Origin: Candidatus Eiseniibacteriota bacterium
GTDB lineage: Bacteria; ARS69
Direction: 5' to 3'
NCBI GenBank assembly: GCA_052390515.1
Contig: JBQTGV010000005.1
Span: forward strand, 1 to 64,000
Length of the DNA: 64,000 nucleotides
Shown here: piece after piece, positions 7,817 through 23,428 of the stretch
Position numbering within the stretch: position 1 is the first letter of the stretch
How the letters are laid out: each line of letters begins with the position of its first letter
Translations under genes and position numbers: made by a program
The notes under the pieces: model-generated
The model's input: the letters and a program-made list of their open reading frames with translations, nothing else
What the model was told of the DNA's origin: nothing
The model's database searches: none

Positions 7817-9756
7817 AGGAGCCCGGCAAGGGCCCGCGCCGACCGGCGGCGCTCGCGTTGGCCCGACCGGCCAAGCCTCGCGGCCCGTTCACGCGCTGGC
7901 TCCGGGGAGACGGCGGAGCGCACGGGCACTCCACCCACCCGTGGTACCTCGTCCTGTGGCTCACCGGCGTGGACTACTTCTCGACGCTCGGTTACCAGCC
8001 GGGAATCGCGCTGCTGGCCGCGGGCGCACTCTCGCCGCTCGCGACCGGACTCCTGGTCGTCGTGACGCTGCTCGGCGCGCTGCCGATCTACGCCCAGGTG
8101 GCCTCGCGCTCGTACGCCGGACAGGGCTCCATCGCCATGCTGGAGAGCCTGCTGCCGGGCTGGTTCGGCAAGGTGCTCGTCCTGGTCCTGCTGGGCTTCG
8201 CGGCGACCGACTTCGTCATCACCATCACGCTGTCGGCGGCCGACGCGACCCAGCACGCCATCGAGAACCCGTTCCTCCACGAGCACCTCGGCGAAGCCAG
8301 GCTCCCGCTGACCATCGCGCTCATCGCGCTGCTCGCCGCCGTGTTCCTGAAGGGATTCACCGAGGCGATCGGCGTCGCCGCGATGGTGGCCATCCCCTAC
8401 CTGCTGCTCAACCTGGTCGTTCTGGTTCGCGGTCTCCTGGAGATCGCCGGACGTCCGGGGATCATCGGCGAATGGCGCTCCGGCCTGTTCACGCAACACG
8501 GCGACTGGGTCGGCCTGCTCGTCGTCTCGGCGCTGATCTTCCCGAAGCTGGCGCTCGGGCTCTCCGGCTTCGAGACCGGTGTCTCGGTCATGCCCCTCGT
8601 CTCCGGCGATGCCAAGGACGGCGGCGTTCCTTTCGCGCGCATCTCCGCCACGCGCCGACTGCTCGCCGCCGCGGCCCTCATCATGTCCGCCTACCTGCTG
8701 CTCTCCAGCTTCGTGACGACGCTGCTCGTCCCGGAGGAGGCCTACGCCGAAGACGGCGAGGCCGCCGGACGCGTGCTCGCCTGGCTCGCGCACGGCCTCC
8801 TCGGCCACGGCTTCGGCTCGGTCTACGACGCGGCCACGCTGCTGATCCTGTGGTTCGCGGGTGCCTCGGCGATGGCCGGCCTGCTCAATTTGATCCCGCG
8901 TTACCTCCCCCGCTTCGGCATGGCACCCGGCTGGGTGGCCCACCGCCGCCCGCTGGTGATCGTCATCCTGGTCATCTGCGTGATCGTGACCTGGATCTTC
9001 GACGCCGACGTGGAGGCGCAGGGCGGCGCCTACGCGACCGGGGTGCTCGCGCTGATGCTGTCCGCCGCCGTGGCCGTGGCGCTCTCGCTCACGCGGGAGG
9101 GCAAGCGCCTCCTCGGCGGATACTTCTGGATCCTGTCGGCGGTCTTCGCCTACACGCTGCTGGAGAACATCCACGAGCGTCCCGACGGACTGATCATCTC
9201 CAGCGTGTTCATCGGGATCGTTCTGGTGCTGAGCGCGGTCAGCCGCTACCTGCGCGCGACCGAGCTGCGCATCACCGAGATCACGTTCGCCGACGAGGAG
9301 TCGGCCTCCCTGTGGAAGGAGATGACGGGCAAGAAGGTGAATCTGGTGCCGTTGACGCAGGCGGATCCCGCCGCGCGCAGGCGGAAGGCCGAGGAGATCG
9401 ACCGCTACTACGACATCCACCATCCGTACGCGTTCGTGCACGTCCGGCTGCTGGACAACCGCAGCGAGTTCCTCGCCCCGGTGAGCGTGCGCGTTCGCAA
9501 GGAAGGCGCCGACTACACCATCGAAGGGACCGGCGCCGTGGCCATCGCCAACACGATCGCGTACTTCAGCGAGCTGCTCGACCCCGTGGGCATCTTCCTC
9601 GGACTCACCCGCAAGGGCCTGATGACGCAGTCGTTCCGCTACCTTCTCTGGGGCGAAGGCGAGACCGGGCTCATGGTCTACCAGATCCTGCTGCGCTACT
9701 GGGACTGGACGCCTGGCGACGACGTTCGCCCGCTCATCTTCCTGATGAGCGAGTAG
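7813..9756 (+). CDS. APC-superfamily transporter (amino acid transporter or KimA-like K+ transporter)
   Basis: LTGVDYFSTLGYQPGIA, FPKLALGLSGFETGV, QGGAYATGVL; about 12 TM plus a C-terminal soluble domain. Confidence 0.82.
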   Translation: MKEPGKGPRRPAALALARPAKPRGPFTRWLRGDGGAHGHSTHPWYLVLWLTGVDYFSTLGYQPGIALLAAGALSPLATGLLVVVTLLGALPIYAQVASRSYAGQGSIAMLESLLPGWFGKVLVLVLLGFAATDFVITITLSAADATQHAIENPFLHEHLGEARLPLTIALIALLAAVFLKGFTEAIGVAAMVAIPYLLLNLVVLVRGLLEIAGRPGIIGEWRSGLFTQHGDWVGLLVVSALIFPKLALGLSGFETGVSVMPLVSGDAKDGGVPFARISATRRLLAAAALIMSAYLLLSSFVTTLLVPEEAYAEDGEAAGRVLAWLAHGLLGHGFGSVYDAATLLILWFAGASAMAGLLNLIPRYLPRFGMAPGWVAHRRPLVIVILVICVIVTWIFDADVEAQGGAYATGVLALMLSAAVAVALSLTREGKRLLGGYFWILSAVFAYTLLENIHERPDGLIISSVFIGIVLVLSAVSRYLRATELRITEITFADEESASLWKEMTGKKVNLVPLTQADPAARRRKAEEIDRYYDIHHPYAFVHVRLLDNRSEFLAPVSVRVRKEGADYTIEGTGAVAIANTIAYFSELLDPVGIFLGLTRKGLMTQSFRYLLWGEGETGLMVYQILLRYWDWTPGDDVRPLIFLMSE

Positions 9757-9806
9757 CGCCGGGCGCCGGCCGCGGCACCCGGCGGCGTCCACGCGGTCCA
9801 GCGCCC

Positions 9807-12446
9807 CTACAGGTCGATCCAGCGGTTGATCTTGATCAGGAAGACGTCGTGGGGGTGCTCGTCGAAGAGCCGGTCGAGGTCGCGGCCCACGTCGAAGCGC
9901 CCGTCCGGATCGAACCCGAAGCGTGACTGCGACCACACCAGATAGAGACTCGACCCCGGCGAGTACTCCCAGCGCACGACGAGGTTGGAGTTGAAGTCGC
10001 GCACGTTGAAGTCCGGGTCGCCGAAGGAGTAGTCGGTGGCTCCGTCCGCGTCCTCGTCCACGAGCCAGGCGCCGCCGGCCGGGTCCGGCGTGGTCACGCC
10101 GTCCAGGCGCACGAAGCGATCCTCGTAGCGGTCCGCGCGGGGATCGGTGATGCGCCTGAAGCCGGCGTACGTTCCCGCCGACACGAAGGGAGCGCCGTAG
10201 TACTGCACGGTCAGCCGCGGCGTGATCGCGTAGTCCAGCCGCAGTTCCACGTCGAACGTCTCCTGCTCCAGGCTCCCGTAGACGTACGCGGGCTCTCCGC
10301 TCCGGTCCGTGGTCTCGATGTACTGCAGGTCGGGACGGCTCCGGCTGTACTGCGGGCCGATCTCCCCTCGGATCGCGTTGCTCGGCCGCCACGCCACGTA
10401 CGTCCAGACGCTCGACTCGCGCCCGGCGCCGTCGTCGAAGCGGATGCCGCTTCCGCCGAGTCCTCCCGACAGCCGCCGCCTCGAGTCGGAGTGGAGGTTG
10501 CCGTTGAAGCTCACGTTGCCGGGGACCTTCATGGACGGTCCGCCACGCAGTTCGCTGAGGGAGATGCGCTCGTTCTCGCGGGTGATCCCCGCGTTGTAGT
10601 TCCAGTTGTTGCGGAAGTTGGCGTTGGTGTTGAAGTTGAACGCCTGGTAGGTGTTCTCGCCGCCGTACTCGAAGTCCAGCCACTGGTTCACGTTGAATCC
10701 CATGCGCCGGAAGATCCCGAACGGGTTGCGGATCGAGTAGCCGACCCAGGAGAACTGGTTGATCTCGTCGGAGTTCCGCATGAAGCCGAGGTCGTTGAGC
10801 TCGAAGCCCGGAGACCGCCAAGCCGCGCCGCCGTCGAAGTTGAGGTTGCCGCTCGACTTGCCGACCCGCATCGACCCCGCGTGGCCGTCCAGCGACGTGC
10901 GCGTCGTGTCGACCGACTGGCCTTCGTTGTCGGGACGCTGGAAGTAACGCGCCGAGGATGTCTGCGTGCGAAGGATGGCTTGCTCGCTGCCGGCCACGCG
11001 GCTGCCCAGCAGGTTCGCCGCCAGGTAGTAGTCCCGCTCGCCGAGGTAGTGGAAGAAGTCCACGCCGCCGGCGTACGCGGACTCGTGCAGGAAGTCCACC
11101 TGCGGGTCGTCGATTCGTCGGTTCACGGCGGTGACCATGCCGCCGATGCGGGTCTCGCCGCGGTCGAAGTCCCGCTGCACGCGACCCACGAAGTGACTGG
11201 CCGCCGGCTCCACGGTGACGTCGCGCCGTTCGCCGTCGAGCTCGACTCGGGCCTGCTCCTTCGCCGTGATGCTCTCCAGCACGCCGATCGACGTGCCCCC
11301 GACCTTGCCGGTGAGCTTGGCGGCCCCGACGATCGAGGTGTTCACGGGCTGATCGACGTAGCCGGGCTCGTTGAAGTCCGCGCGGTACTGGGGCGACCGT
11401 CCGATGCGCCGCGAGTAGAAGAGGCGGTCCGTCGCGTGCGTGCCGAAGGCCACCGACGGCGCGATCCGGAACTCGAAGATGTTCGCTCCCTCGATGAAGA
11501 AGGGCCGCTTCTCGTCGAAGAACGTCTCGAAGGCGGACAGGTTCACTTCGGATGGATCGGCCTCCACCTGCCCGAAGTCGGGGTTCACGGTCAGATCCAG
11601 CGTCAGCGCGCTGCCCACCCCGATCTTGCCGTCCAAGCCCCCGGAGACGTTTCCGTCGGACCCGTCGGCGAACGGATCGCCCGAGACCTCGGCGAAGCGC
11701 TCCTGCTTGGCCACCGTGTACGGCAGAAACTCGACCCGACGCTGCGGCCGGATGCCGCGGATCCCGTGCAGCTCCCCGAACTTGGACACCCACCCGTCCT
11801 CGTCCCTGGGGATCGGCTGCCACACGGACCGCTCTTCCTGGCGGTAGATGCGCCGCTGCACCTGGATGCCCCAGACGTGCTCCTCGCGGTTGTCGTAGCG
11901 GAGCTGGCTGAGCGGGATGCGCGCTTCCGCCGTCCAGCCCTCCGCGTCGATCCGCGCCTGGTGCTCCCACACCGGATCCCAGTTGCCGTCCCAGCTGTCG
12001 CCGTCCTGCGAGATGAACTCGTCGCCCTGCACTCCGGAGACGCTGGCGGTGAACGAGTACGCCGTGCGGTGGTCATGGTAGCTGTCGATGTTCACCTCGA
12101 CCCAGTCGCCGGGGAACTGGTCGCGGCGGCCGAGGATGCTGACCACGCCTCCCGGCTGGGGATCGAACGCGCGGTAGGCCAGGTAGAGGTTCTCGTCGTC
12201 GTACAGGATCTTGAACCGCGTGTCCGCGGTCGGCGGCTGGCCCTCCGCCGGCTCCTGCTGGGTGAAGCCACCGGACCACTCCACCGCGCTCCAGGCCTCT
12301 TCGTCGATGCTGCCGTCGATCCGGGGCGGCGTGGACGCCCGCTCCGTCACGTAGACACGCGGAGGGACCGCGGCGGCGGTGCCGGCCGCGGCCAGCGCCC
12401 AGAGGGCGGCGAAGAGCGGGGCGAAGCGGGAGGCGGAGGGGTTCAC
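9807..12446 (-). CDS. CBM9-like + DUF5916 secreted/outer-membrane protein
   Basis: Signal peptide; PRIDGSIDEEAW, DLTVNPDFGQVEAD, FETFFDEKRPFFIEG, LFYSRRIG; NLVVRWEYSPGSSLYLVWSQ barrel-like end. Confidence 0.88.
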   Translation of the reverse strand: MNPSASRFAPLFAALWALAAAGTAAAVPPRVYVTERASTPPRIDGSIDEEAWSAVEWSGGFTQQEPAEGQPPTADTRFKILYDDENLYLAYRAFDPQPGGVVSILGRRDQFPGDWVEVNIDSYHDHRTAYSFTASVSGVQGDEFISQDGDSWDGNWDPVWEHQARIDAEGWTAEARIPLSQLRYDNREEHVWGIQVQRRIYRQEERSVWQPIPRDEDGWVSKFGELHGIRGIRPQRRVEFLPYTVAKQERFAEVSGDPFADGSDGNVSGGLDGKIGVGSALTLDLTVNPDFGQVEADPSEVNLSAFETFFDEKRPFFIEGANIFEFRIAPSVAFGTHATDRLFYSRRIGRSPQYRADFNEPGYVDQPVNTSIVGAAKLTGKVGGTSIGVLESITAKEQARVELDGERRDVTVEPAASHFVGRVQRDFDRGETRIGGMVTAVNRRIDDPQVDFLHESAYAGGVDFFHYLGERDYYLAANLLGSRVAGSEQAILRTQTSSARYFQRPDNEGQSVDTTRTSLDGHAGSMRVGKSSGNLNFDGGAAWRSPGFELNDLGFMRNSDEINQFSWVGYSIRNPFGIFRRMGFNVNQWLDFEYGGENTYQAFNFNTNANFRNNWNYNAGITRENERISLSELRGGPSMKVPGNVSFNGNLHSDSRRRLSGGLGGSGIRFDDGAGRESSVWTYVAWRPSNAIRGEIGPQYSRSRPDLQYIETTDRSGEPAYVYGSLEQETFDVELRLDYAITPRLTVQYYGAPFVSAGTYAGFRRITDPRADRYEDRFVRLDGVTTPDPAGGAWLVDEDADGATDYSFGDPDFNVRDFNSNLVVRWEYSPGSSLYLVWSQSRFGFDPDGRFDVGRDLDRLFDEHPHDVFLIKINRWIDL

Positions 12447-12575
12447 GGGGCGGATCCTCGCGTTCGGCGGTTCTCTCACCGCGCCGACGTCCGCGTTCGG
12501 GCGGGTCCGGCGCCGCGTCGAACTGTCAGACGCACTCGCCCGGCGGACCGTTCATCCGGGGAAACGCGAGATCTC

Positions 12576-13103
12576 TCACCAACCGGACTCGGAGGCCTTC
12601 CCCGAGACCGCCTCTCCGGCGGCCATCTTCACGGCGGCGACCAGCCTCCCGAGCTCCTTCTCGCCCTCCGCTCCGTAGCCGCGAAGGATTTCCACCTGCT
12701 GCAGGGCCGCCTGGAGATGCGCTTCGCCAAGGTACTCCCGCGCCTGCGGGAAGTCCGGACGGATCTCCAGCGCCTTCCCGTAGTTCTCGAAAGCATGCTC
12801 CAGATCGCCGGTCTTCCGCTGGCAGAAGGCCAGCATGTTGAGGATCTCGGCGTCGTTCTTGCGCTTCTTGTTCGCCTGCTCGAAGCGAACCAGCGCCTCC
12901 TCGAACTTCCCCGCCTCGGCCAGCTCCATCCCGCGCTGGTACATCTGGTCCGCCTCGTCGGCCTTCGCTTCCGTGCCTTCCGCGGAAGTTGCCTCGCGCT
13001 CCCGCGCGCCGCCGCCGCTCGACGCGGCGATGGCTCCGCCGGCGAGCGCGGCGGTTGACACGGTGAGGAGGGCGAAGGTCCGGGCGCGGTTCGTGATCGA
13101 CAT
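12576..13103 (-). CDS. Secreted TPR protein
   Basis: AGGAG RBS, ATG 13103, signal peptide, about 3 TPRs (YGKALEIRPDFPQAREYLGEAHL). Confidence 0.85.
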   Translation of the reverse strand: MSITNRARTFALLTVSTAALAGGAIAASSGGGAREREATSAEGTEAKADEADQMYQRGMELAEAGKFEEALVRFEQANKKRKNDAEILNMLAFCQRKTGDLEHAFENYGKALEIRPDFPQAREYLGEAHLQAALQQVEILRGYGAEGEKELGRLVAAVKMAAGEAVSGKASESGW

Positions 13104-13353
13104 GGTGGAGCTCCTCTCGGGTGGGAGATTCGGATCGAGATGGAAACTACGGGCGAGGCGCGGGGCGCGCCAGATCCGAGCTCCTCCCAAGGGTGCCTTC
13201 CTGGAGCCGCAGTCCATCAACCGGTCGGGGCGCAGGACGATGGTGGGACGTGAACGAACCAAACGCCACGGCGCGAAGGCTCAGCCACCGCCGAACTGGA
13301 CCGTGGTGTCCGACGTTGCTCCGAGCCCCTGCCCTGCGGCGGGCAGGTAGTCT

Positions 13354-13935
13354 CTAGCGCGGCCTGCGCTCCCGAACCTCCTTGTGCGGCGGTGTCCTCC
13401 GGTACTTGATCTCCACCGTCGCTGTTCCCAGATTCGCGAGGCGCGATACATCAGTCGTTTGGATCCCACGTGCGTCCGTCGTCGCCGCCGAGTCCGCCGC
13501 TGCGGCGGTCAGCACAAACCCGTTCGAGTTCACGCCACCCTCCAGCGCTTCCTTCATGAGCAGCGTCATGTCCAGGGCAACCGCTCCGGTACGGCCGAGG
13601 TCCACCTCCGTGCGCCCGTACACCGACTCGTCGAAGCTCGTGGCCCACGTGACAGCTCCCGGAGTCCACGCGGCGGTGACAGGGTGGACGCGAAGATCCA
13701 GGGTTCCGTCTCGTGCCGCCCCGGCCAGGTCCAGACGAATGCTGGCCCGGGAGATGGCGATGTAGCCGAGGTCTTCTGGCGTGGCCAGATTGAAGAAGAT
13801 GCGGGCGTTCCCGAGACCGTCGTCCGCCGTCGTGACGTCCTGGACGGCGAGGTGGAGAGTCTCGGCGAACGAAGACGCGGCGGCGAGCACGATGCAAGCC
13901 CCGGCGACGAGACCGGCAGAGCAATGCGTCTTCAA
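13354..13935 (-). CDS. Secreted protein with DNRLRE-like beta-sandwich domain
   Basis: TTG start overlapping the upstream TGA; signal peptide; RIFFNL, ISRASIRL, VHPVTAAWTPGAVTW, NSNGFVL pattern. Confidence 0.65.
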   Translation of the reverse strand: MKTHCSAGLVAGACIVLAAASSFAETLHLAVQDVTTADDGLGNARIFFNLATPEDLGYIAISRASIRLDLAGAARDGTLDLRVHPVTAAWTPGAVTWATSFDESVYGRTEVDLGRTGAVALDMTLLMKEALEGGVNSNGFVLTAAAADSAATTDARGIQTTDVSRLANLGTATVEIKYRRTPPHKEVRERRPR

Positions 13936-15263
13936 CGGTAGCCCTCCTTGATTCGTCCCCAGGATCTCGTCTCGACGGAGACCGAGCCGCAGCCCTGACC
14001 GCGGGCGCCGATCGGACCGCAGCCGGCGGAGTTCGCCGGCAGGCAGGGCGAGGTATCGAAGACGGTGAAGTCCCCGAGCGTCGGATCGCAGTACTGCGGA
14101 TCGATCACGCGGTCCGTGGCAGCCATGCTGAATCCGCTCACGTCACCGCCGGCGTTCTGCCAGTAGACGTTGCAGCTTGGCACGACGGTGGCTGTGCTGG
14201 ACCGCCACACCGCCACCGCCCCGATCGAGCCCGTGACCGCATTGTTCTGGAACTGAACCGCTCCAGCCTGGAAAGCGGCCGCCGCGCCCGCCCCGAGCGC
14301 CGTGTTCTGGTGGAACGTGTTGCCGACGGCGGTGCCGGAGCCACCCGTCGAGAGAGCCCCACCACCCCCTCCTCCAAGCGTCGTCCGATTGGTCCAGAAC
14401 ACGCAGTTCTGAACAGTGTACGGCGCCGCGCCGAACGCGTTGATGGCCACTGCACCCCCGGCCGACACGGCCACGTTGTTCTCGAACCAGCAGTTCTCGA
14501 TGGTGACGCCCAGCTCGTACCCGCCGATGGCGATGGCACCGCCGCCTCCCGAGCCGAGCTCGGAGTTGCCGATGAACGCGCTGTTCCGGATCACCGCAAC
14601 ATTCGGAAGGCCCGGAGTGTACGGACCGGCGTTGATGGCGCGCTCGCTGCAGTTGATGAACGTGCAGCCGTCGACCAACAGGTCTGCCTCCAGCTGCGAG
14701 ATGCCCGCGCCTCCCGTCTGGGTGGACAAGTTGCGGAACTCACAGCCGACGACCTCCAGATCGGCGAACGTCACGAGGATTCCGGCCACTGCGAGCTGTG
14801 CTCCGTCCATGTCACGCAGGACACAGTCACGGAAGGTGACTTTCTCCGAGTCGACGATGAACGCACCAGGGCTCCTCACCGGAGCACCGGTGATGGTGAA
14901 GCCTTCCACCACCGTGGTCCCCGACAGAAGCTGCTCGCCGTAGATCACCTGCGGCTGGAAACCGGTGGCCCCCAGCATGTCGATGGTGGTGACCGAGGGT
15001 CCCCCCTCGGAGAGAAGCGTGACGCCATCCGCCAGGAAGGCGCAAGCAGTCTGCGGAGAGCCGAAGACTACCCTGGTCTCGACGTCGCTGTATGTGCCCG
15101 GAGCAACCAACACCGAGTCTCCGGTCACGCTGGCATCCAGCCCAGCCAGGATCGTCGGCTGGTCGGCAGGAACATGAATCACAGCACCCTCGACTCCTGC
15201 GGTCAGGGTCCCAACCGTCCCCGCTGCGGTCCAGAAGCGGCGCACCCAAGGTAGCCACCTCAT
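13932..15263 (-). CDS. Secreted right-handed beta-helix (pectin-lyase fold/Pmp-like) protein with C-terminal SWGxIK tail
   Basis: ATG 15263 coupled to the upstream stop; IHVPADQPTI..GDSVLVAPGTY start; repeated GGAI and CxFxxN motifs; ends DPQYC..SPCLP..C..IGA.G.GC.SVSVETRSWGRIKEGYR. Confidence 0.85.
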   Translation of the reverse strand: MRWLPWVRRFWTAAGTVGTLTAGVEGAVIHVPADQPTILAGLDASVTGDSVLVAPGTYSDVETRVVFGSPQTACAFLADGVTLLSEGGPSVTTIDMLGATGFQPQVIYGEQLLSGTTVVEGFTITGAPVRSPGAFIVDSEKVTFRDCVLRDMDGAQLAVAGILVTFADLEVVGCEFRNLSTQTGGAGISQLEADLLVDGCTFINCSERAINAGPYTPGLPNVAVIRNSAFIGNSELGSGGGGAIAIGGYELGVTIENCWFENNVAVSAGGAVAINAFGAAPYTVQNCVFWTNRTTLGGGGGGALSTGGSGTAVGNTFHQNTALGAGAAAAFQAGAVQFQNNAVTGSIGAVAVWRSSTATVVPSCNVYWQNAGGDVSGFSMAATDRVIDPQYCDPTLGDFTVFDTSPCLPANSAGCGPIGARGQGCGSVSVETRSWGRIKEGYR

Positions 15264-18200
15264 TCGAGCACCGCGATCTTGTGAGTCTGCGCGAACCCCG
15301 GGCCTGTCATCCTCACGAAGTAGACGCCCGAGGACACACGGCCTCCGGACGCATCCCTCAGATTCCACGTCAACTCCCCGGTACCCGCCGAGAGCGGCCC
15401 GTGCAAGAGACCTGCCACATGCCGTCCGCGAACATCGAACACGTCGACCGCGTAGACTCCCTCGTCGCCAGCTGCAATTCCGAACCCGAGCTGAACCGAC
15501 CCTCGTGTGGGATTGGCTGCCAGTGACGCCAGCGACGTGACCGCCGGAGTCCGGTCGACAGCCGTCGTGGCACGCCCGGTGTCTCCGGAGCGGTCGTCCA
15601 GCGGTTGTGACGGGAGCCCGGGGACCGTCCTCCCGACCTGCGGTGCCCCACTCATACGGTGGTAGCTCTTGACGACGTCGCTCGTGTACCTGGGGACGAA
15701 GTCGAAGAGCGTGTAGGTCGGCTTCAGCTTGGGCCGAAGGAGCTGGAAGATGTCGAACTGGCTGCCGTCGATCAGGTGCTCGTCCAGAGGGGACGCGGTG
15801 TACGTGTACCAGTAGCAGTTCTGCGACTCCAGGATGGGACTGCCGGCTTCGACGTAAGTCAGGACGAACTCCACGTTGACGCGCTCGACCATCAAGCCGT
15901 TGTTGCCTCGATCTACCACGGGTGACTCCATGCCCAGTTTCGTCAGGGCTCGATTGTTCGACCGCACCGCTTCGAGGCCCGCGCCGCTCGTCACCTCCAG
16001 CCAGTTCGCGCGGAAGTTCGCGGTCGGCCCGGTCAGCAGGGGATTCGAGTCCCGGCTGATGTCCACCGATCGCAGGGACTGCACCACGTTGTTGCTGTCC
16101 GCCTGGATGTTCTGTGTCTGAACCATCAAGAGGCCAGCGAGGTTGAAGTCCTCCACGTAGTTGCGCACGTACGTGGCGGTCCGGTTGTACGCCGCGTCGG
16201 CGCACACCCACGTGGACGCGACGCCCGTGTGGCTTCCGAGGCCCGCTCCCGTCCCTGGACCCACGATCCAGTTGCCGTCGATGAGGAGATGGTGAGGAGT
16301 CAGAAACGTCACGCCGCAGACGTTCGGGTTCGTCGTGGGCCAGATAATGTCGACGGCCGCGGAAGTCTCCCCCGGAATGACCAGCCCGAACAGGTCGACC
16401 TTGTTGTTGCGGATCGTGGCGTGAACGGCACCGTCGAGGAGAATCCCCGAGCGACCCACGTTGAAAAGGACACTCCCCCCACGCTCGATGGTGTTCGACT
16501 CGATGACCACCCCTTGATTCACCGCCCAGTCCACCCACGCGCCGACCTCCCCGAAGTCATGGATACGTGAGTTCCTGAGAGTGGTGAAGTTGTCAGGCTC
16601 GAAGAAGAAGATGGGGTATTCCGCGTAGCCGATGTCCGCGTACTCGATCACGCTCCCCGCGGCATCAGCATCCAGAAGGAGTCCGCCCCAGGCGTCGCCC
16701 GAGCTCGTCAGGGTCTCCGGACGGAAGTACACCGAGTCGCCGTCGGTCTCGCTCCCGGTCGTGAAGATCCTCCCCTGAGGGACGAGGTCAACCTTGCCGG
16801 CAACTCCGAACGACGTCTCCAGGCTCGGCGACACCGCGTTCGTCGCGACGACGTAGGTGCCTCCCAGAAGGTCCCACTCCCCGTGTTCCTCCTCTACAGA
16901 CCCGCCGCTCCACACGCCCCACGGGAGGAAGGCATCGGAGTTGTCGAGATAGATGTGCTTGGGCGGAGCACCGGCGATGTTCACGAAGTCCACATCGTCG
17001 AGATTCGGTGCGATCAGGTGCGCAACCGTGATCCCGTTCTCCGCGTCACGGATCGTCGCGTTCGAGATCGAGGAGAGCGGCTCCACCGAGCCTACGTACC
17101 CGTATCCCGTCCACTCCGCCCCGATGAGCTCCATGTGGAAGCCGCCCCAGTCCGTGCTCGTCGGCGTAGGACTATCCGAACGGAACGTGATGGGTTCGGG
17201 GATCGTCCCATCGGCGACGAGCTGTCCCCTGACGACGCACTCCGACTTCGGTGACGCCCCGTAGTTCGCCGACCCTGCCGCCGCCGGGCCGAAGCCGAGC
17301 GTCCAGCCGGGCGGGACTGTCAGCGAGTTACCCGTGTCGACCAGGACATCCCGGTCAAAGCTCACGTCGGACACGTTCCCCGTGAACGTGAGGCCCGCCG
17401 CGTTGGCGAGCAGGGTGTTGAGTTGCGCTGTGGTCAGCCCCGCATCCTCCAGAGCCAGCGCACCCCGGGCGTACCGGAACTCAGCGTTCGCCAGGGACGC
17501 GGCATCCAGGTCCCCCATGCGGATGCCGTACCAGTCGCCGGCCGTGGCTGCGGCTACCTCCCCGCCACCCAGGTAGTGCGTGTTCGCCGCGTCGTCGCGC
17601 GAGGAGGTGAAGGTGACCTCGTTGCCAGCCGTCCCGGCCACGACGAGATTCGCGGACGCCGGAACGACGATCTCCACGCGCTGCTGATCGACACCTGCGG
17701 CGAGCAGGTCCTCAGTACTGGCGATCACCGTGGCACCTGCGTTGACCGTGAGCGTACCGCCCGCCGGCACCGCCACGTCCTGCGTCAGCCGGATCTTGCC
17801 GTCCCACTCCATGTCAGAGGGGAGCACGAACGGCTGGTTCGCGGCCGGCGCGTCGTCGTACCTCACGGTCACCTGCATCACGCCGTTCCCACCGCCGGGC
17901 TCGGTCTCCCAGTGGATGTCGTAGAACGTGAGGCCGCTGTACATCGATTGCTCGCGCCGCATCGAGCACATGTTGTGGTCGCGGTACGCCGTCTCACTCG
18001 GATCATTGGGGACGAACCAGTAGACGTCCGTGCTCGGGTTGGTCCACGGCGCGAATACATTGGACACCCCGTTCCCCCAGATCTCCTCAAGGTCCCCAGG
18101 GTAGATCTCGTCCTCACAGGTCATGCAGGACATCTCGTCGAATCCCAGGACCGGGTCCGGCACCCAGGTCAGCGTGTCGACCATCCCCTGGGGCACCTCG

Positions 18201-19626
18201 ATGTCGATGGTCGGCGGGAAGTTCCCGTCCGGGCAGCAGGCCACGTCTTGTATCGTGCAGGGGGGATTGGGACACGGCGGTTGGGTGCAGTTCTCGCAGC
18301 CAACGTCTGCGCACAGTGGCGGGGCTTGCTGACCAAAGGCACCTATCCACCAGCCTTCAATGGAATGACTAACGTCCGGTTCCGGCCCGCAAGAAGGGCA
18401 GGCCCCGTGCGCCCGGTACCTCTCGTGCTCGGACACGTGGGCGATCACCAGACCGCTGTTCCCCTTCACAGCTCCGCCACAAGCGCCGCCCAGCGATGAT
18501 CCATCGGTGAAGAGGGTGGCCGTGCTATCCCGGCACTCGATGACGAAATACTGCTTCGGATCCTCGGTGTAGATGACGCCGAAGCCGGCCTGATCGCCGT
18601 TGGCGCCGACGTCTTCCAGAGTCAGAACCTGGGAACCAGGCCCACTGAAGCTGATCTCGTACTTGGGCTCGATCCACCCCAGCTTCCAGCGCATGATCGT
18701 TTCCATGATCGTGCCGGCGTAATAGTTTTCGTCGGTGCCGTCCATGACGCCGTAGCGTCCGATTGACTTGATGTGCCCCCCCGCCCACCCCACCGGAAGG
18801 GATCCCAGGCCGTTCAGCGCGTCGAGAACGTCGTGGCCGTACTCGTGAAGCACCAGCCCGCGGACCCGTGCAGCGCTCCGTTGGGAAAGCCTGGGAGCCA
18901 GATAGATGCCGTTGTTCGCTCGTATCTCGACGTTGTCGACGGGCTTCGGGTCCAGCGCGAGGTCTAACGTGGACGCTCCGGGGATGCCACTGAGGGCGAG
19001 CGCATGGGTGTCACCGAAAACCTGGCGCCAACAGATGATCACTTGATCGACGATGTCGTCCCCGTCCGCATCGAAGTCGTCGAAGCTGAAGGCCGGGTCA
19101 TTGTCGACCGAGTCGATCACCGCGTTATGCGCTCCGCGGAGGTCCTCGTTCCATGTCGCCATGCCGTCCTCCAGGTAGACGACCTCCGGGTAGACGACAC
19201 CGCGAACGTCGTGCTGGCCGTTGGACATCTGCAGGAAAAAGTCCGTGATGGAGCCGGGAACCGGCGTCTCGCCTACCTCCTGAAGCAGGAGCGGCGCCCA
19301 GGACGGCACCGGTGTTCCCGGACCCGAGGACAGAGGCCACGGATCGGGTGTGCAGGGTGATCCGCCGGGATCAGACTGTCCCTCGGCCTCCGCGAGGATG
19401 AACACGACCTTCACCAGTCCGGAGGGCGGAATCCCTTGCGCGGGCTCGTGTGGCACTCCCGCCGCGTGGGCGCACGTAGCGCTCTCCTGCGATCTGACGG
19501 CAGATGTCCCCGTGATGACGGCTGCCAGCGCAACGGCGAGCGCGGCAGCCGGACGGCGACGCGTCGCCGCGCGACAGGTCTCGAGAACATGGCTATGAGT
19601 GAGTGAGTGAGTGAGTGAGTGAGCAT
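15260..19626 (-). CDS. Large secreted M6 (immune inhibitor A)-like zinc metalloprotease with beta-helix repeats and FlgD-Ig/T9SS-like CTD; likely start currently out of frame
   Basis: GSITDFFLQMSNG, FDDFDADGDDIVD, HEYGH, GVMDG, WKLGWI, QYFVIECR (M6-like); CTD NPTRG..FDVRGRHV..TWNLRDASGGRVSSGVYFVRM; RBS-supported ATG 19626 is separated from the frame by (CTCA)7. Confidence 0.8.
19596..19623 (-). repeat. Perfect tetranucleotide simple sequence repeat (CTCA)7, (TGAG)7 on +
   Basis: Seven TGAG units counted from 19596 to 19623, directly followed by CAT (ATG on minus). Confidence 0.95.
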
Positions 19627-19858
19627 CGTTCGTTCCCCCCTCCAGACACGCACCGAGCGACGAGGTCGCGCCCCGGGCAAGCGGGCGGCGCCAGCTACCC
19701 ACGCGCCGCAGTCGAGTCCGAGGGGGGAACTCCCGGACGGAGCGCAGAGCTCCTCGCCCGCAGCGCGCCGACGTATCCAGGATACGCTCCCCGCGGGTGG
19801 GCAAGTCAAGGGGGCCGAGGAGTGAGGTCGCGGAACCGCGCTCCGTCGCGGGACTGGG

Positions 19859-22800
19859 CTACAGCGCCGCCACCGCCCGGTCCCGCTCGAGCATGAGGAC
19901 GCCGACGTCGGGATCCACGAGAATCCTCTCCGGCTCGAAGTCGCAGGGGATGGTGACCTCCGCGGTTTCGCCCGCGCCGAGCGTGATGGAGACGCGCGCC
20001 TCGCTCCAGGCCTTCGCCCCCTCCTCCTCGGCGTAGCGCTCCCCAGCCACCGCCGCCACCTCCACCGGCATGCGCCCGGTGCCCGCGTTGCGGACCGTGG
20101 CCGTCACCGTCCAGCCGCCTTCGCCCGCCGCCTTCGCCGCCCCCTCTACCCGATACTCGGGAACGATCACGTCGAAGAACCACTGGTTCACGAACTCGTC
20201 GAACGCCGTCGAGTCCGGCGCGTGCGCGCGCAGAACGCGGACGTAGTCCTGCAGCACCGGGAAGTCGGGTCCGCCGGCATACTCGCGGAGGAATGCCTGG
20301 ATGCCGGCCAGCCCCGCCTCTTCTCCCATCCGGCTATGCAGCATCCAGAAGACCCAGCCGCCCTTGTCGTACATCACCGTCTCGTCCGTCGACTTCTCCC
20401 CGAGCGTCCACACCAACGGCTTCTCCGCGTCCACCTGTCGCCGCTCGCCGTAGCGCTCCTCGATTCCCTTGCAGAACTCGGCGCGCGCCCGATCGCCCTG
20501 CACCTGGCGGAACAGCAGGATCGTCGAGAAGTGCGCCATGCCCTCCGCGAGGATGTTGCCGCCCGGCCCCTCGCCGGGCATGAGGATGTTGCCCCACCAC
20601 TGGTGGGCGGCCTCGTGAGCGGTGATCAGGAAGGGCGCGTCGGATTCGTCGGTCTTGCGCGTCAGGAAGCCGATGCTCTCCGAGAACGTGATGTTCGTCG
20701 GGAATCCCTGCGCGTAATGGGCGAGTCCCGGGAACTCGCTGAGCTTGAGCTCCCGCCAGGGATACGGGTAGAACCACTCCGAGTACCACTTCCGCGAGGC
20801 CTCGAGCGTCCTGCCCATGTCCTCGATGTTCACCGCGTGCTCGGGATGGTGGTAGATCGCGACGCCCTCGCCCTCCCACACATCCCACTTGCCGGCGACG
20901 ACGTTGAAGAAGTTCACCGGGAAGTCGGACTCCCACACCACGGTGCGCGTCCCGTTCTCGACCGTCTCCGCGGTGCGGATCCCGACACCGTGGTACCGGT
21001 ACTCCTCCGGCCCGTGGATCGTCGTCCGGACCGGAAAGCGCACGCCGCTCCCGATCGCCGGCGGGGTGCGCCCCTCGTAGAAGCCCTCCTCCCATTCGCT
21101 CGGCTCGGTTCGGTTGTCCTCGTCGATCCCGCGGTCGGGCTCGAAGAACGGCACGGGCAGGAAGCCGCTGTTGAACGACGTCAGCACGACGCCGGCGGGC
21201 AGGACGAAGTTCGGAGCACCCCCGCCGTTCTTGGTGATTCCGCGCGGGAACCGCCCCTCGTGGGCGAAGCCGACGCGCACCGTGTCCCCCGGCGCGATCG
21301 GCTCGGCCGGCTCGAACACGAAGAGCCGCGCGCGCTCCTCCGGCTCGACCGGCTCTCCGTCCACGGTCCACTCGATGTTCTCGAAGTGGTCGCCGACGGA
21401 CATGGGGAAGCGGCTCATCGGCTCGCTCTCGGCGTTCACCAAGTCGTACCATCCGCGGACGCGGAAGTGGCGGTTCGCCGGGTCGAGTGTCAGGTCTACG
21501 TCGGCACCGCCGATCTGCGGCGTGCGCCGCTCCTTCCACGTGTTCACGTTGCGTCCCCAGTAGTCCTGCTCGCGCTTCTCCGCTGTCTTGCCCTGCCAGC
21601 CCCGCCCGACCTGCACGTGCAGCAGGACTCCGAGCACGATCACGGGGACGAGAACCGGCGCCATCCTCCACAGGGTGCGCAGCATCGCGACGGGGCGAAG
21701 TCGATCCAGCGCGTTGCCGGAGTCGTGCTCGCGGCGCGGAAACACGCGGACGGTGAGCGCCACCAGGAACACCATCACCGCGAGATAGAAGGCGCGGTTC
21801 ATGAGCAGCGCGCTCTCGTTCGGCGTCACGCCGCCGAAATCGCTCCAGGTCAGCACTCCCCACAGGTCCCAGTTGCCGAGCCAGTTCATCTCGCCCTTCA
21901 GCTGCTTCCACCCCGTGAACATCAGGGTGGCGAGCGCGATTCCGTACGTCGTGTAACGGTCGCCGGTGAGCGCCACGAGCGCGGTCACGTAGGACGACCA
22001 CACCAGGAGCGTCGGAACGAGGAGCAGCCCCCAGACCAGGAGGAACGGTCCGAAGTCGAAGCCGACCCGGTTGCCCTGGAACAGCATGACGACGAACGAC
22101 CCGAACATGGCCGCGAGCAGGATCACGACGCCCACGACCCCGTTCGCAAGGGACTTGCCGAGCAGCATCGCCGCGGTGCGCGACGGCGTCGCGTAGGATA
22201 CGGGCGCGAGCCCCGTGGTCTTGTCCCGCAGGACCGACTCCGCGGTGTAGACCATCAGCAGCGCGCACAGCATCAGCGTGAGGGCGTTCATGGAGGCGAC
22301 CGCGGCGATGCCGGACGTCAGCAGCACGGGCGTATCGAACGCACCGACGTCGAACGCCCGGTTCAGCACGACCTGCAGGATGATGATGGGCACGAACAGG
22401 TAGAGCCCGGCCTGCCCGGCGAGGTTCTTGGCCTCGAACCCGGCGACGTCGAGCGTCGTGCGCACGAATCCCGGCGTCCGCGCGGTCATGCCCAGTCCCG
22501 CGATCGGCGCGGGTGTGGACGTCGGCTCGACGGCGGGCGCCGCGGCCTTCGCCTTGCGTCGCGCCACCCGATCCCCGCGCAGCGTCGCGGCGAAGTGCCG
22601 GGCCGACGCGCCGACCAGCGCGACGCCGAGGAGCAGATACGCGAGGCGGCTGGCGAGGAACGGCCAGTCGTATCCGACGGGGGTGCTGTTGTAGTACTCC
22701 ACGCCCCGGTCGACCTTGATCCAGGTCTCGTTGATCCAGCGGTATCCCGACGGCTCGATCCACATGAGCAGCCGGTTGATCCGTGGATCCAGCCACGAGG

Positions 22801-23428
22801 GAGACCACTCGAACAGGAAGAAGATCGTCACCAGGAACGCGACGACCGGCGCGACGAACACCAGGATGGGCTTGCGGGTGAGCTCGCCGATGGCGAAGGA
22901 CATCCCGCAGAAGAACAGGAGGCACGGAACGGTGAGGAACAGGGCGGGCCGCAGGTAGTTCGCCGCGACGAACGGCCCGCGGATCTGCTCCGCCTCCTCG
23001 TGGGGCCACAGGTGGTTGAAGAACATCTGGAGCAGCAGGTGCGCCCCGAGCACCGCGAGGAACACGAGAAGCACCGCCCCGAACTTGCCCCACACGTACT
23101 CCGCGGGAGTCAGCCGCGTGGCGTGCAGCAGCGGACCCACGCGGAGCTCGTCGTCGCGCGGCAGGGCCATCCCGGCCAGCACCGCGACGAAGAACACGTA
23201 GAAGAGGAACGCGACGAGCGGGAACATCAACCCGACGGTGAACTCGGAGGTGATCCACAGCTTGGAGTCCCCGCCGACGGTGTTGTCTCCGGAGGCGATC
23301 GCCATCTGCCCGGTGGACAGCCCGAAGCTGGTCAGCGCGAGCATCAGCAGCAGGAACCACAGCGGCGGCCGCGAGACGTACGAGCGCAGGTCGACCCCGA
23401 GGACCGCGCCGGTCCTGGCGAGATTCAC
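19859..23428 (-). CDS. ABC-2 type permease (two membrane domains) fused to M1 family aminopeptidase
   Basis: Two blocks of about 6 TM; C-terminal HEAAHQWWG...LAEGMA, YDKG, FVNQWF; YAQGFP in place of GAMEN. Confidence 0.88.
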   Translation of the reverse strand: MNLARTGAVLGVDLRSYVSRPPLWFLLLMLALTSFGLSTGQMAIASGDNTVGGDSKLWITSEFTVGLMFPLVAFLFYVFFVAVLAGMALPRDDELRVGPLLHATRLTPAEYVWGKFGAVLLVFLAVLGAHLLLQMFFNHLWPHEEAEQIRGPFVAANYLRPALFLTVPCLLFFCGMSFAIGELTRKPILVFVAPVVAFLVTIFFLFEWSPSWLDPRINRLLMWIEPSGYRWINETWIKVDRGVEYYNSTPVGYDWPFLASRLAYLLLGVALVGASARHFAATLRGDRVARRKAKAAAPAVEPTSTPAPIAGLGMTARTPGFVRTTLDVAGFEAKNLAGQAGLYLFVPIIILQVVLNRAFDVGAFDTPVLLTSGIAAVASMNALTLMLCALLMVYTAESVLRDKTTGLAPVSYATPSRTAAMLLGKSLANGVVGVVILLAAMFGSFVVMLFQGNRVGFDFGPFLLVWGLLLVPTLLVWSSYVTALVALTGDRYTTYGIALATLMFTGWKQLKGEMNWLGNWDLWGVLTWSDFGGVTPNESALLMNRAFYLAVMVFLVALTVRVFPRREHDSGNALDRLRPVAMLRTLWRMAPVLVPVIVLGVLLHVQVGRGWQGKTAEKREQDYWGRNVNTWKERRTPQIGGADVDLTLDPANRHFRVRGWYDLVNAESEPMSRFPMSVGDHFENIEWTVDGEPVEPEERARLFVFEPAEPIAPGDTVRVGFAHEGRFPRGITKNGGGAPNFVLPAGVVLTSFNSGFLPVPFFEPDRGIDEDNRTEPSEWEEGFYEGRTPPAIGSGVRFPVRTTIHGPEEYRYHGVGIRTAETVENGTRTVVWESDFPVNFFNVVAGKWDVWEGEGVAIYHHPEHAVNIEDMGRTLEASRKWYSEWFYPYPWRELKLSEFPGLAHYAQGFPTNITFSESIGFLTRKTDESDAPFLITAHEAAHQWWGNILMPGEGPGGNILAEGMAHFSTILLFRQVQGDRARAEFCKGIEERYGERRQVDAEKPLVWTLGEKSTDETVMYDKGGWVFWMLHSRMGEEAGLAGIQAFLREYAGGPDFPVLQDYVRVLRAHAPDSTAFDEFVNQWFFDVIVPEYRVEGAAKAAGEGGWTVTATVRNAGTGRMPVEVAAVAGERYAEEEGAKAWSEARVSITLGAGETAEVTIPCDFEPERILVDPDVGVLMLERDRAVAAL

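Follow-up and report, generated by a model that had tools for sequence, protein, structure and literature searches.

Nearly everything established about slipped-strand phase variation comes from host-adapted pathogens. In Haemophilus influenzae, for example, the contingency loci lic and mod contain the tetranucleotide repeats (CAAT)n and (AGTC)n, respectively, and phase variation through homopolymeric G/C tracts is reportedly the subject of a PhasomeIt study of Campylobacter. Here we describe a locus of comparable architecture in a 64,000-nucleotide (nt) stretch of DNA from a Candidatus Eiseniibacteriota bacterium (contig JBQTGV010000005.1, positions 1 to 64,000; hereafter the window), in which a (CTCA)7 tract directly follows the start codon of a gene for a predicted secreted protease on the minus strand. 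We consider it probable that this tract is a slipped-strand translational phase-variation (contingency) switch that is OFF in the present assembly.

Repeat enrichment at gene N-termini is treated as a signature of phase variation, mostly of pathogens, in the part of PMC3315296 drawn on here, and soil and ocean bacteria are named as a knowledge gap for phase variation in the corresponding part of a 2025 review (PMC11868660). A full-text literature search for Eisenbacteria together with type IX secretion returned no paper. In the literature retrieved for phase variation and Gemmatimonadota, judged from titles and abstracts, neither term stood in any title or abstract, and a search combining tetranucleotide repeat, phase variation and metagenome gave none on such lineages among the matches listed.

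Architecture of the proposed switch region

Read on the minus strand, the region consists of TCTGGAGGGGGGAACGAACG, the ATG (19626-19624), (CTCA)7 (19623-19596) and TAGCCATG, continuing as TAGCCATGTTC; the layout given in the original prediction, ATG 19626 followed by (CTCA)7, is borne out letter by letter. The perfect tetranucleotide tract (19596..19623) has its first unit at codon 2 of the open reading frame (ORF) that begins at ATG 19626, and this ATG (19624..19626) is the start codon that we assign to the switch from the sequence and its frames. It is preceded by the Shine-Dalgarno (SD)-like motif GGAGGGGGG (19635..19643, minus strand), whose GGAGG core lies 12 nt and whose G-run ends 8 nt before the ATG. 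GGAGG at a distance of 4-13 nt precedes many long, coding-like ORFs of the window; the host organism uses GGAGG ribosome-binding sites.

According to Tandem Repeats Finder, positions 19596-19623 have a period of 4, with 7.0 copies and 100% matches, and they form the sole row of 51 in the 64-kb window with more than 3 copies at 100%. A perfect-repeat scan of the window returned, beyond the tract, only 7-base homopolymers and (CG)5/(GC)5, and both searches agree with the earlier remark that the window holds no comparable microsatellite. Even (CTCA)4 with at most one mismatch occurs inside the tract only, and in none of 100 dinucleotide-preserving shuffles. The tract is real, far beyond chance. 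It passes the tetranucleotide phase-variation cut-off of at least 5 units, its unit of 4 nt is no multiple of 3, and it lies within the reading frame near the 5' end.

At the assembled length of seven units, ATG 19626 reads MLTHSLTHSLIAMFSRP and continues for 71 codons, 60 of them after the tract, to TGA 19413-19411, which gives a dead-end ORF of 71 amino acids (aa) (19411..19626, minus strand). One unit fewer or two more leave 0 codons after the tract, with the TAG that directly follows it (19593..19595, minus strand) in frame; this holds for every unit number that is a multiple of 3 (6, 9). With one unit more or two fewer, 1444 further codons follow the tract, corresponding to a protein of 1456 aa at n=8. 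The frame count thus reproduces all three outcomes that had been claimed beforehand, namely a 71-aa frame ending at 19411 with 7 units, an immediate TAG (at 19595-19593) with 6 units, and entry into the protease frame with 8 or 5 units (1456 aa for n=8). Gain or loss of a unit toggles between full-length product and early termination, as in a classical switch.

In the mechanism that we propose, ribosomes would load at GGAGGGGGG and ATG 19626 and then directly read (CTCA)n, while slipped-strand mispairing in replication would add or remove 4-nt units. At n = 2 mod 3 (5, 8, 11) the ATG would be in frame with the signal peptide and the 1444 codons of the protease, which would be the ON state. At n = 0 mod 3 translation would halt at once at the TAG, and at n = 1 mod 3, to which the assembled n=7 belongs, it would run into the 71-aa dead end, so that the assembled majority allele would be OFF. 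The protease would not be exportable in the OFF state because no start codon lies ahead of its signal peptide, and the beta-helix gene coupled to it through an ATGA overlap would also be expected to be down-regulated. We infer that units are gained and lost often enough to be useful, that the cell produces and secretes the ON form, and that the switch carries the downstream genes with it. The product, with a predicted secretion signal and a C-terminal domain of the type IX secretion system (T9SS) type, is of a class usual for contingency loci.

Where translation begins

The protease frame is open straight through the tract, where it reads DAHSLTHSLTHSH, back to TTG 19804. The present tract length therefore puts no stop into this frame and only cuts off its sole SD-bearing start, and the question becomes one of location: where does translation begin? 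The N-terminus of the homologue P0005, M-KRRLAHAVTALGVVLALTGTVRA|E, aligns with T-RRRPAAALAVALAAVITGTSAVRS|Q of the window. On the strength of this alignment the segment RRRPAAALAVALAAVITGTSAVRS (19490..19561, minus strand, in the protease frame) is read as a signal peptide, and a start codon is expected shortly before it. Only ATG 19626 with 5, 8 or 11 units can supply one, as the segment is joined to this ATG only at 5, 8, 11 and so on; the putative N-terminal export signal of the protease is tied to a start codon only at ON repeat numbers. The signal peptide that the original prediction had proposed is accordingly backed by a homologue in which it starts right after the initial methionine.

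From the stop of the upstream gene (19859) to the mature domain, the frame offers three canonical start codons and no others, TTG 19804, GTG 19702 and GTG 19456. None of the three has an SD-like motif in the 20 nt ahead of it, in keeping with the earlier statement that no other convincing start precedes the signal peptide. If translation nevertheless began at GTG 19702 or TTG 19804, the tract would encode (HSLT)n in a long N-terminal extension and the gene would be ON as assembled. The protease frame is indeed without a stop from 19804 to 15260, through the tract. Against such a start stand the SD-like motif of ATG 19626, which neither of the two codons shares, and the composition of the in-frame extension (19858-19627), which does not look coding-like: its GC contents at the first, second and third codon positions (GC1/GC2/GC3) are 0.71/0.73/0.78, compared to a GC2 of 0.43-0.48 and a GC3 of 0.79-0.80 in the gene body. 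Moreover, the signal peptide would sit 59-81 residues into the protein, although it is N-terminal in homologues with intact starts. We regard initiation at either codon as highly improbable, and TTG 19804 was rejected as a start for its missing SD-like motif and the high GC2 of the extension.

A further ATG, at 19590, is 29 nt ahead of the RRR codons. It opens a frame that reads MFSRPVARRR and would, with one additional base downstream, form a conventional n-region, and one can picture this ATG as the ancestral start of a frame that was broken by a single-base indel before the hydrophobic core, with ATG 19626 and the tract serving as an upstream ORF or leader element. What precedes ATG 19590, however, is no SD-like motif, only the tract and then TAGCC; the SD-like motif is 45 nt upstream and is spaced correctly for ATG 19626 instead, and the interval contains no homopolymer or other error-prone site. 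An origin of this kind appears improbable to us.

The public gene call for the locus, P0002 (1398 aa), starts at GTG 19456, past the signal peptide. An automated pipeline would therefore miss both the secretion signal and the switch, and the call may serve as a warning that such features are overlooked in annotation.

Repeats in homologous loci

A profile search of genome contigs with a 9-sequence alignment returned five loci with 27-35% identity, among which the source genome and its closest relatives are not represented. They come from metagenome-assembled genomes (MAGs) labelled Planctomycetota, Gemmatimonadota (two paralogues) and "bacterium" (two), all of them other lineages. Three of these five distant loci carry a repeat of their own, different in each case, at or near the 5' end of the gene. 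L002, the locus of P0005, has a C9 tract (8118-8126) at codons 38-40, which is in frame; in the two remaining frames, stops lie 1 and 4 codons beyond it. L005 has a G8 tract (8069-8076) at about codon 37, within the signal peptide and likewise in frame, with stops after 4 and 88 codons in the other frames. In L003, the intact gene is preceded by a divergent intergenic region that contains (ACCGC)5 (7840-7864), 125 nt ahead of the ATG. L001 has no repeat, and its start and signal peptide are intact. L004 has no repeat either; here a signal-peptide-like ORF, MNCRTSSAERTCLPVLAAASILACGSK*, is in another frame than the gene body. This ORF (7928-8011), in a 4.7-Mb chromosome-level MAG, stops at TAA 8009-8011, and the gene body spans 7947-11558; the mismatch could be due to a frameshift, decay or an assembly error.

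C9, G8 and (ACCGC)5 are the only long repeats of the homologous loci except for an array in L001. That array, (CGGCCAAA)11 at 15589-15676, is an 88-nt octanucleotide repeat at the extreme end of a contig of 871 kb; it lies about 260 nt ahead of a minus-strand gene for a BNR-repeat protein (sialidase-like fold) with a signal peptide.

For counting repeats we adopted the cut-offs that the part of PMC5953494 used here gives for Neisseria: at least 9 for G/C and 11 for A/T homopolymers, at least 5 units for tetra- and pentanucleotides and at least 3 for units of 6-9 nt. The cut-off for di- and trinucleotides is stated there as 8 in the Methods and as 6 in a table footnote, and our count was done with 6. 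The same source assigns repeats within 200 bp of the ATG to the promoter class. Four repeats qualify in the 150,552 nt of the window and the five loci, and three of the four lie no more than 200 nt from the start of one of the six family genes (binomial P 1.6e-5). When the window, as the locus of ascertainment, is set aside, two of three qualifying repeats in 86,552 nt are near family starts (P about 1.6e-3). Repeats recur at the same gene position in homologues (3 of the 5 loci), which is the pattern of a "PV module", and the presence of differing repeats at one functional position across lineages argues for selection for mutability at the 5' end of the gene.

One family member, P0026, which is available as a protein only, has the signal peptide MSRLSVRTLSLSLSLSLSLLVLPG, in which residues 9-19 read LSLSLSLSLSL and are encodable by (TC)n or (CT)n.

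How do these observations bear on a 5' end that is simply broken? A fixed frameshift or a miscounted tract could have disrupted it, by decay or as an assembly artefact, and the repeat would then be a neutral expansion. The assembled state is OFF, the database gene call is forced to GTG 19456 beyond the signal peptide, and L004 is frameshifted between its signal-peptide-like ORF and its body with no repeat at hand, all of which fits such a view. A hydrophobicity screen points the same way: among 80 family proteins the N-terminal strand motif was located in 56 and not in 24, and the 56 comprise 33 with a signal-peptide-like N-terminus, 17 that start with methionine without a signal peptide and 6 with another first residue. 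This census used a crude rule and no control family, and the 17 include at least one case (P0009, from L001) that is only a mis-called start, so that the census can be taken as a lead only. On the other hand, the remainder of the 1444-codon frame is undamaged: it has a coding-like GC3 of 0.79-0.80 and no stops. Neutral decay would not be expected to yield a perfect 28-nt tract right behind an SD-like motif and an ATG; no shuffle holds even 4 units. Both alternative lengths behave as if designed, and decay accounts poorly for the independent repeats that homologues carry at the same position. We judge this explanation to be unlikely, if the most serious of those considered.

Several points weigh against a switch. 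Seven units are near the low end of the tracts studied experimentally in Haemophilus. The frame is open through the tract to TTG 19804, which makes an upstream start formally possible. L004 has a 5' frameshift without a nearby repeat, so that 5' frameshifts in this family would also arise by decay or assembly error, and L001 has neither repeat nor frameshift. As for the enrichment, G8 of L005 is below the Neisseria cut-off of 9 and was left out of the count, the test is built on only six genes, and the zone of +/-200 nt was picked after the data had been seen, though it equals the published 200-bp rule. The 71-aa OFF-frame peptide has no database relatives. Protein databases hold one allele only, so that no repeat-length polymorphism is seen in them, and the relatives P0003 (77% identical) and P0011 (72%), both metagenome records, lack the N-terminus, with the gene call of P0011 starting within the signal peptide. 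A search for proteins of near length with residues 60-560 gave 6 matches, none showing the tract region, and a search for shorter proteins with residues 45-245 gave a single match (P0011), in which the tract region is not shown.

Taken together, the contingency locus that had been proposed for the window draws on the three-frame architecture, the SD-like motif with its ATG, the alignment of the signal peptide and the 5' repeats of homologues; the frameshift of L004, which has no repeat, speaks against it. A phase-variation switch at ATG 19626 remains the reading that we prefer. More tentatively, and as a possibility that we would place below even chances, several uncultivated and mostly environmental lineages (MAGs named Eiseniibacteriota, Gemmatimonadota and unclassified, all with T9SS-type cargo) may share the cassette headed by the protease as a contingency module, in which differing tracts would have been installed independently. 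Such a module may make use of tetranucleotide, pentanucleotide, poly-C and poly-G tracts, and in at least two of these cases a leader stem masking the ribosome-binding site would act together with the tract.

Predicted pairing of the leader with the ribosome-binding site

The leader contains an arm, GUUCCCCCCUC (19720..19730, minus strand), that is the perfect complement of GAGGGGGGAAC (19642-19632), which covers the ribosome-binding site, and it is therefore a candidate anti-SD stem. The pairing between this arm and the SD-like motif is present in the minimum-free-energy fold, and an 11-nt complement to the zone from the SD-like motif to the ATG is rare among shuffled leaders (38-68 of 20000). 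L002 shows a comparable pairing, also of 11 nt and extending into its SD (about 7930-7940 with 7986-7996; 30 of 5000 shuffles), and the leader of L005 pairs over 8 nt (477 of 5000 shuffles). By the same shuffle test, the leaders of L001, L003 and L004 show no unusual SD pairing. The window leader as a whole is no stabler than its shuffles (z -0.38). Rfam gave only a chance-level microRNA match for 19350-19900 (E 0.78), and a scan of 19350-19950 for sigma-70 promoters and terminators returned 0 of each. Judged from this complementarity, the ribosome-binding site of the gene is probably masked as well, which would add to the control by the proposed repeat switch.

The protease and its family

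The body of the protease frame (15260..19591, minus strand) comprises the signal peptide, an M6-like domain with HEYGH, a right-handed beta-helix region and a FlgD-Ig/T9SS type A C-terminal domain. The M6 model TIGR03296 matches about 240 residues with 31.9 bits in the whole protein and 34.2 bits in the N-terminal 619 aa, at a cut-off of 110.8, and it is matched by 7 of the 9 aligned family members; no Pfam peptidase match was found in the protease. HEYGH is present in the window protein, and H-E-Y-x-H is kept in the homologues that cover the region. Thus the cut-off of the M6 family model is not reached, and the zinc-binding HExxH motif is conserved. The description as a "giant secreted metalloprotease" in the original prediction is reasonable in view of HEYGH and the family matches, although the latter are sub-threshold, and membership in the M6 metalloprotease family is not established by these profile scores. 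In comparison to M6 (immune inhibitor A-like) metalloproteases, which include the NCBIfam group "T9SS-dependent M6-like", the window protease likewise has an HExxH motif (HEYGH) and a weak TIGR03296 match; it differs in scoring far under the cut-off and in the large beta-helix region after the domain.

The C-terminal domain is just below threshold in both models that apply to it (TIGR04183 with 21.7 bits against a cut-off of 23 bits, FlgD_ig with 21 against 27), and 4 of the 9 family members match TIGR04183 at E <=0.001. The named homologues are MAG proteins of "Candidatus Eiseniibacteriota" that are labelled T9SS type A sorting domain proteins. The family is small: a HMMER search with the N-terminal 619 aa found 78 proteins at E <=0.001 among 1.84 billion representatives. 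A sequence search of the PDB gave 0 matches for the single protein, and the profile gave only 4 FlgD Ig-like matches, to the C-terminal domain. The AlphaFold2 model of the N-terminal 619 aa is poor, with a mean predicted local distance difference test score (pLDDT) of 49.6 and a predicted template modelling score (pTM) of 0.41.

Signal peptides of the family repeatedly open with an (S/T/K)-R-R motif, in the window (19552-19561) as well as in P0005, P0012, P0023 and P0043. The examples TRRRP, MKRRLA, KSRRTRS, MTRRKV and MTRRAL are reminiscent of twin-arginine signals; the protease family scan gave no match to TIGR01409 (Tat-type signal).

The downstream cassette

Two genes follow the protease on the same strand. 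The first encodes a beta-helix protein of 443 aa (13932..15263, minus strand), whose ATG overlaps the protease stop (ATGA 15263-15260), and the second a DNRLRE/CBM96-domain protein of 193 aa (13354..13935, minus strand), whose TTG overlaps the preceding stop (TTGA 13935-13932); both overlaps are present as they had been described. The DNRLRE/CBM96 gene has its own AAGGAGGG 7 nt upstream of the TTG. A beta-helix homologue comes after the protease homologue in four of the five loci, L002-L005 (tblastn, E 2e-67 to 3e-38), and a DNRLRE gene in two of the five (tblastn). By this sequence comparison the protease/beta-helix/DNRLRE cassette is conserved, and translational coupling suggests that the switch would govern the cassette as a whole.

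The upstream neighbour (19859-23428, minus strand) encodes a fusion-like protein of 1189 aa with an N-terminal ABC-2 membrane region and a C-terminal Peptidase M1 (aminopeptidase N-like). On the same strand just past the cassette are a TPR protein (12576-13262) and an 890-aa DUF5916 + CBM9 protein (9807-12479, minus strand).

Comparison with known phase-variable loci

If the cassette is indeed a contingency module across lineages, stochastic ON/OFF expression of a costly or exposed secreted enzyme would be a selected trait outside host-pathogen settings. Possible uses would be to limit the exploitation of a public good or to avoid recognition by phages or predators. For an uncultivated lineage of high GC content, the locus is a clean candidate that can be put to the test, and within its gene family different lineages appear to have come to one solution by way of different repeats.

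The closest likeness is to the Haemophilus loci. As in these, a perfect tetranucleotide tract occupies the first codons just after the ATG, gain or loss of units shifts the ATG among three frames of which one is productive, and the product is of the surface or secreted kind. Unlike Haemophilus, the window host is not a host-adapted pathogen; it belongs to a high-GC (about 67%) uncultivated environmental lineage. The window tract is also short, with 7 units, and the likeness is one of sequence architecture. The cargo is different as well, a 1456-aa T9SS-type protease that heads a conserved three-gene cassette.

The tracts of the homologues find their counterparts elsewhere. C9 of L002 and G8 of L005, both in the 5' coding region, resemble the homopolymeric G/C phase variation of Neisseria and Campylobacter, and the pentanucleotide tract of L003, within 200 bp of the ATG, corresponds to the "transcriptional" class of the PhasomeIt studies of these genera. 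In contrast to Neisseria and Campylobacter, the homologues come from other phyla (Gemmatimonadota-labelled and unclassified MAGs), and only C9 and (ACCGC)5 reach the Neisseria cut-offs. The window locus itself matches the architecture of the "phasome" genes of Neisseria, as these are defined by their repeats in the part of PMC5953494 considered here. Relative to the known contingency loci, what seems new, on the evidence of these sequences, is the high-GC uncultivated host, the T9SS-type protease cassette and the apparently convergent acquisition of repeats across lineages.

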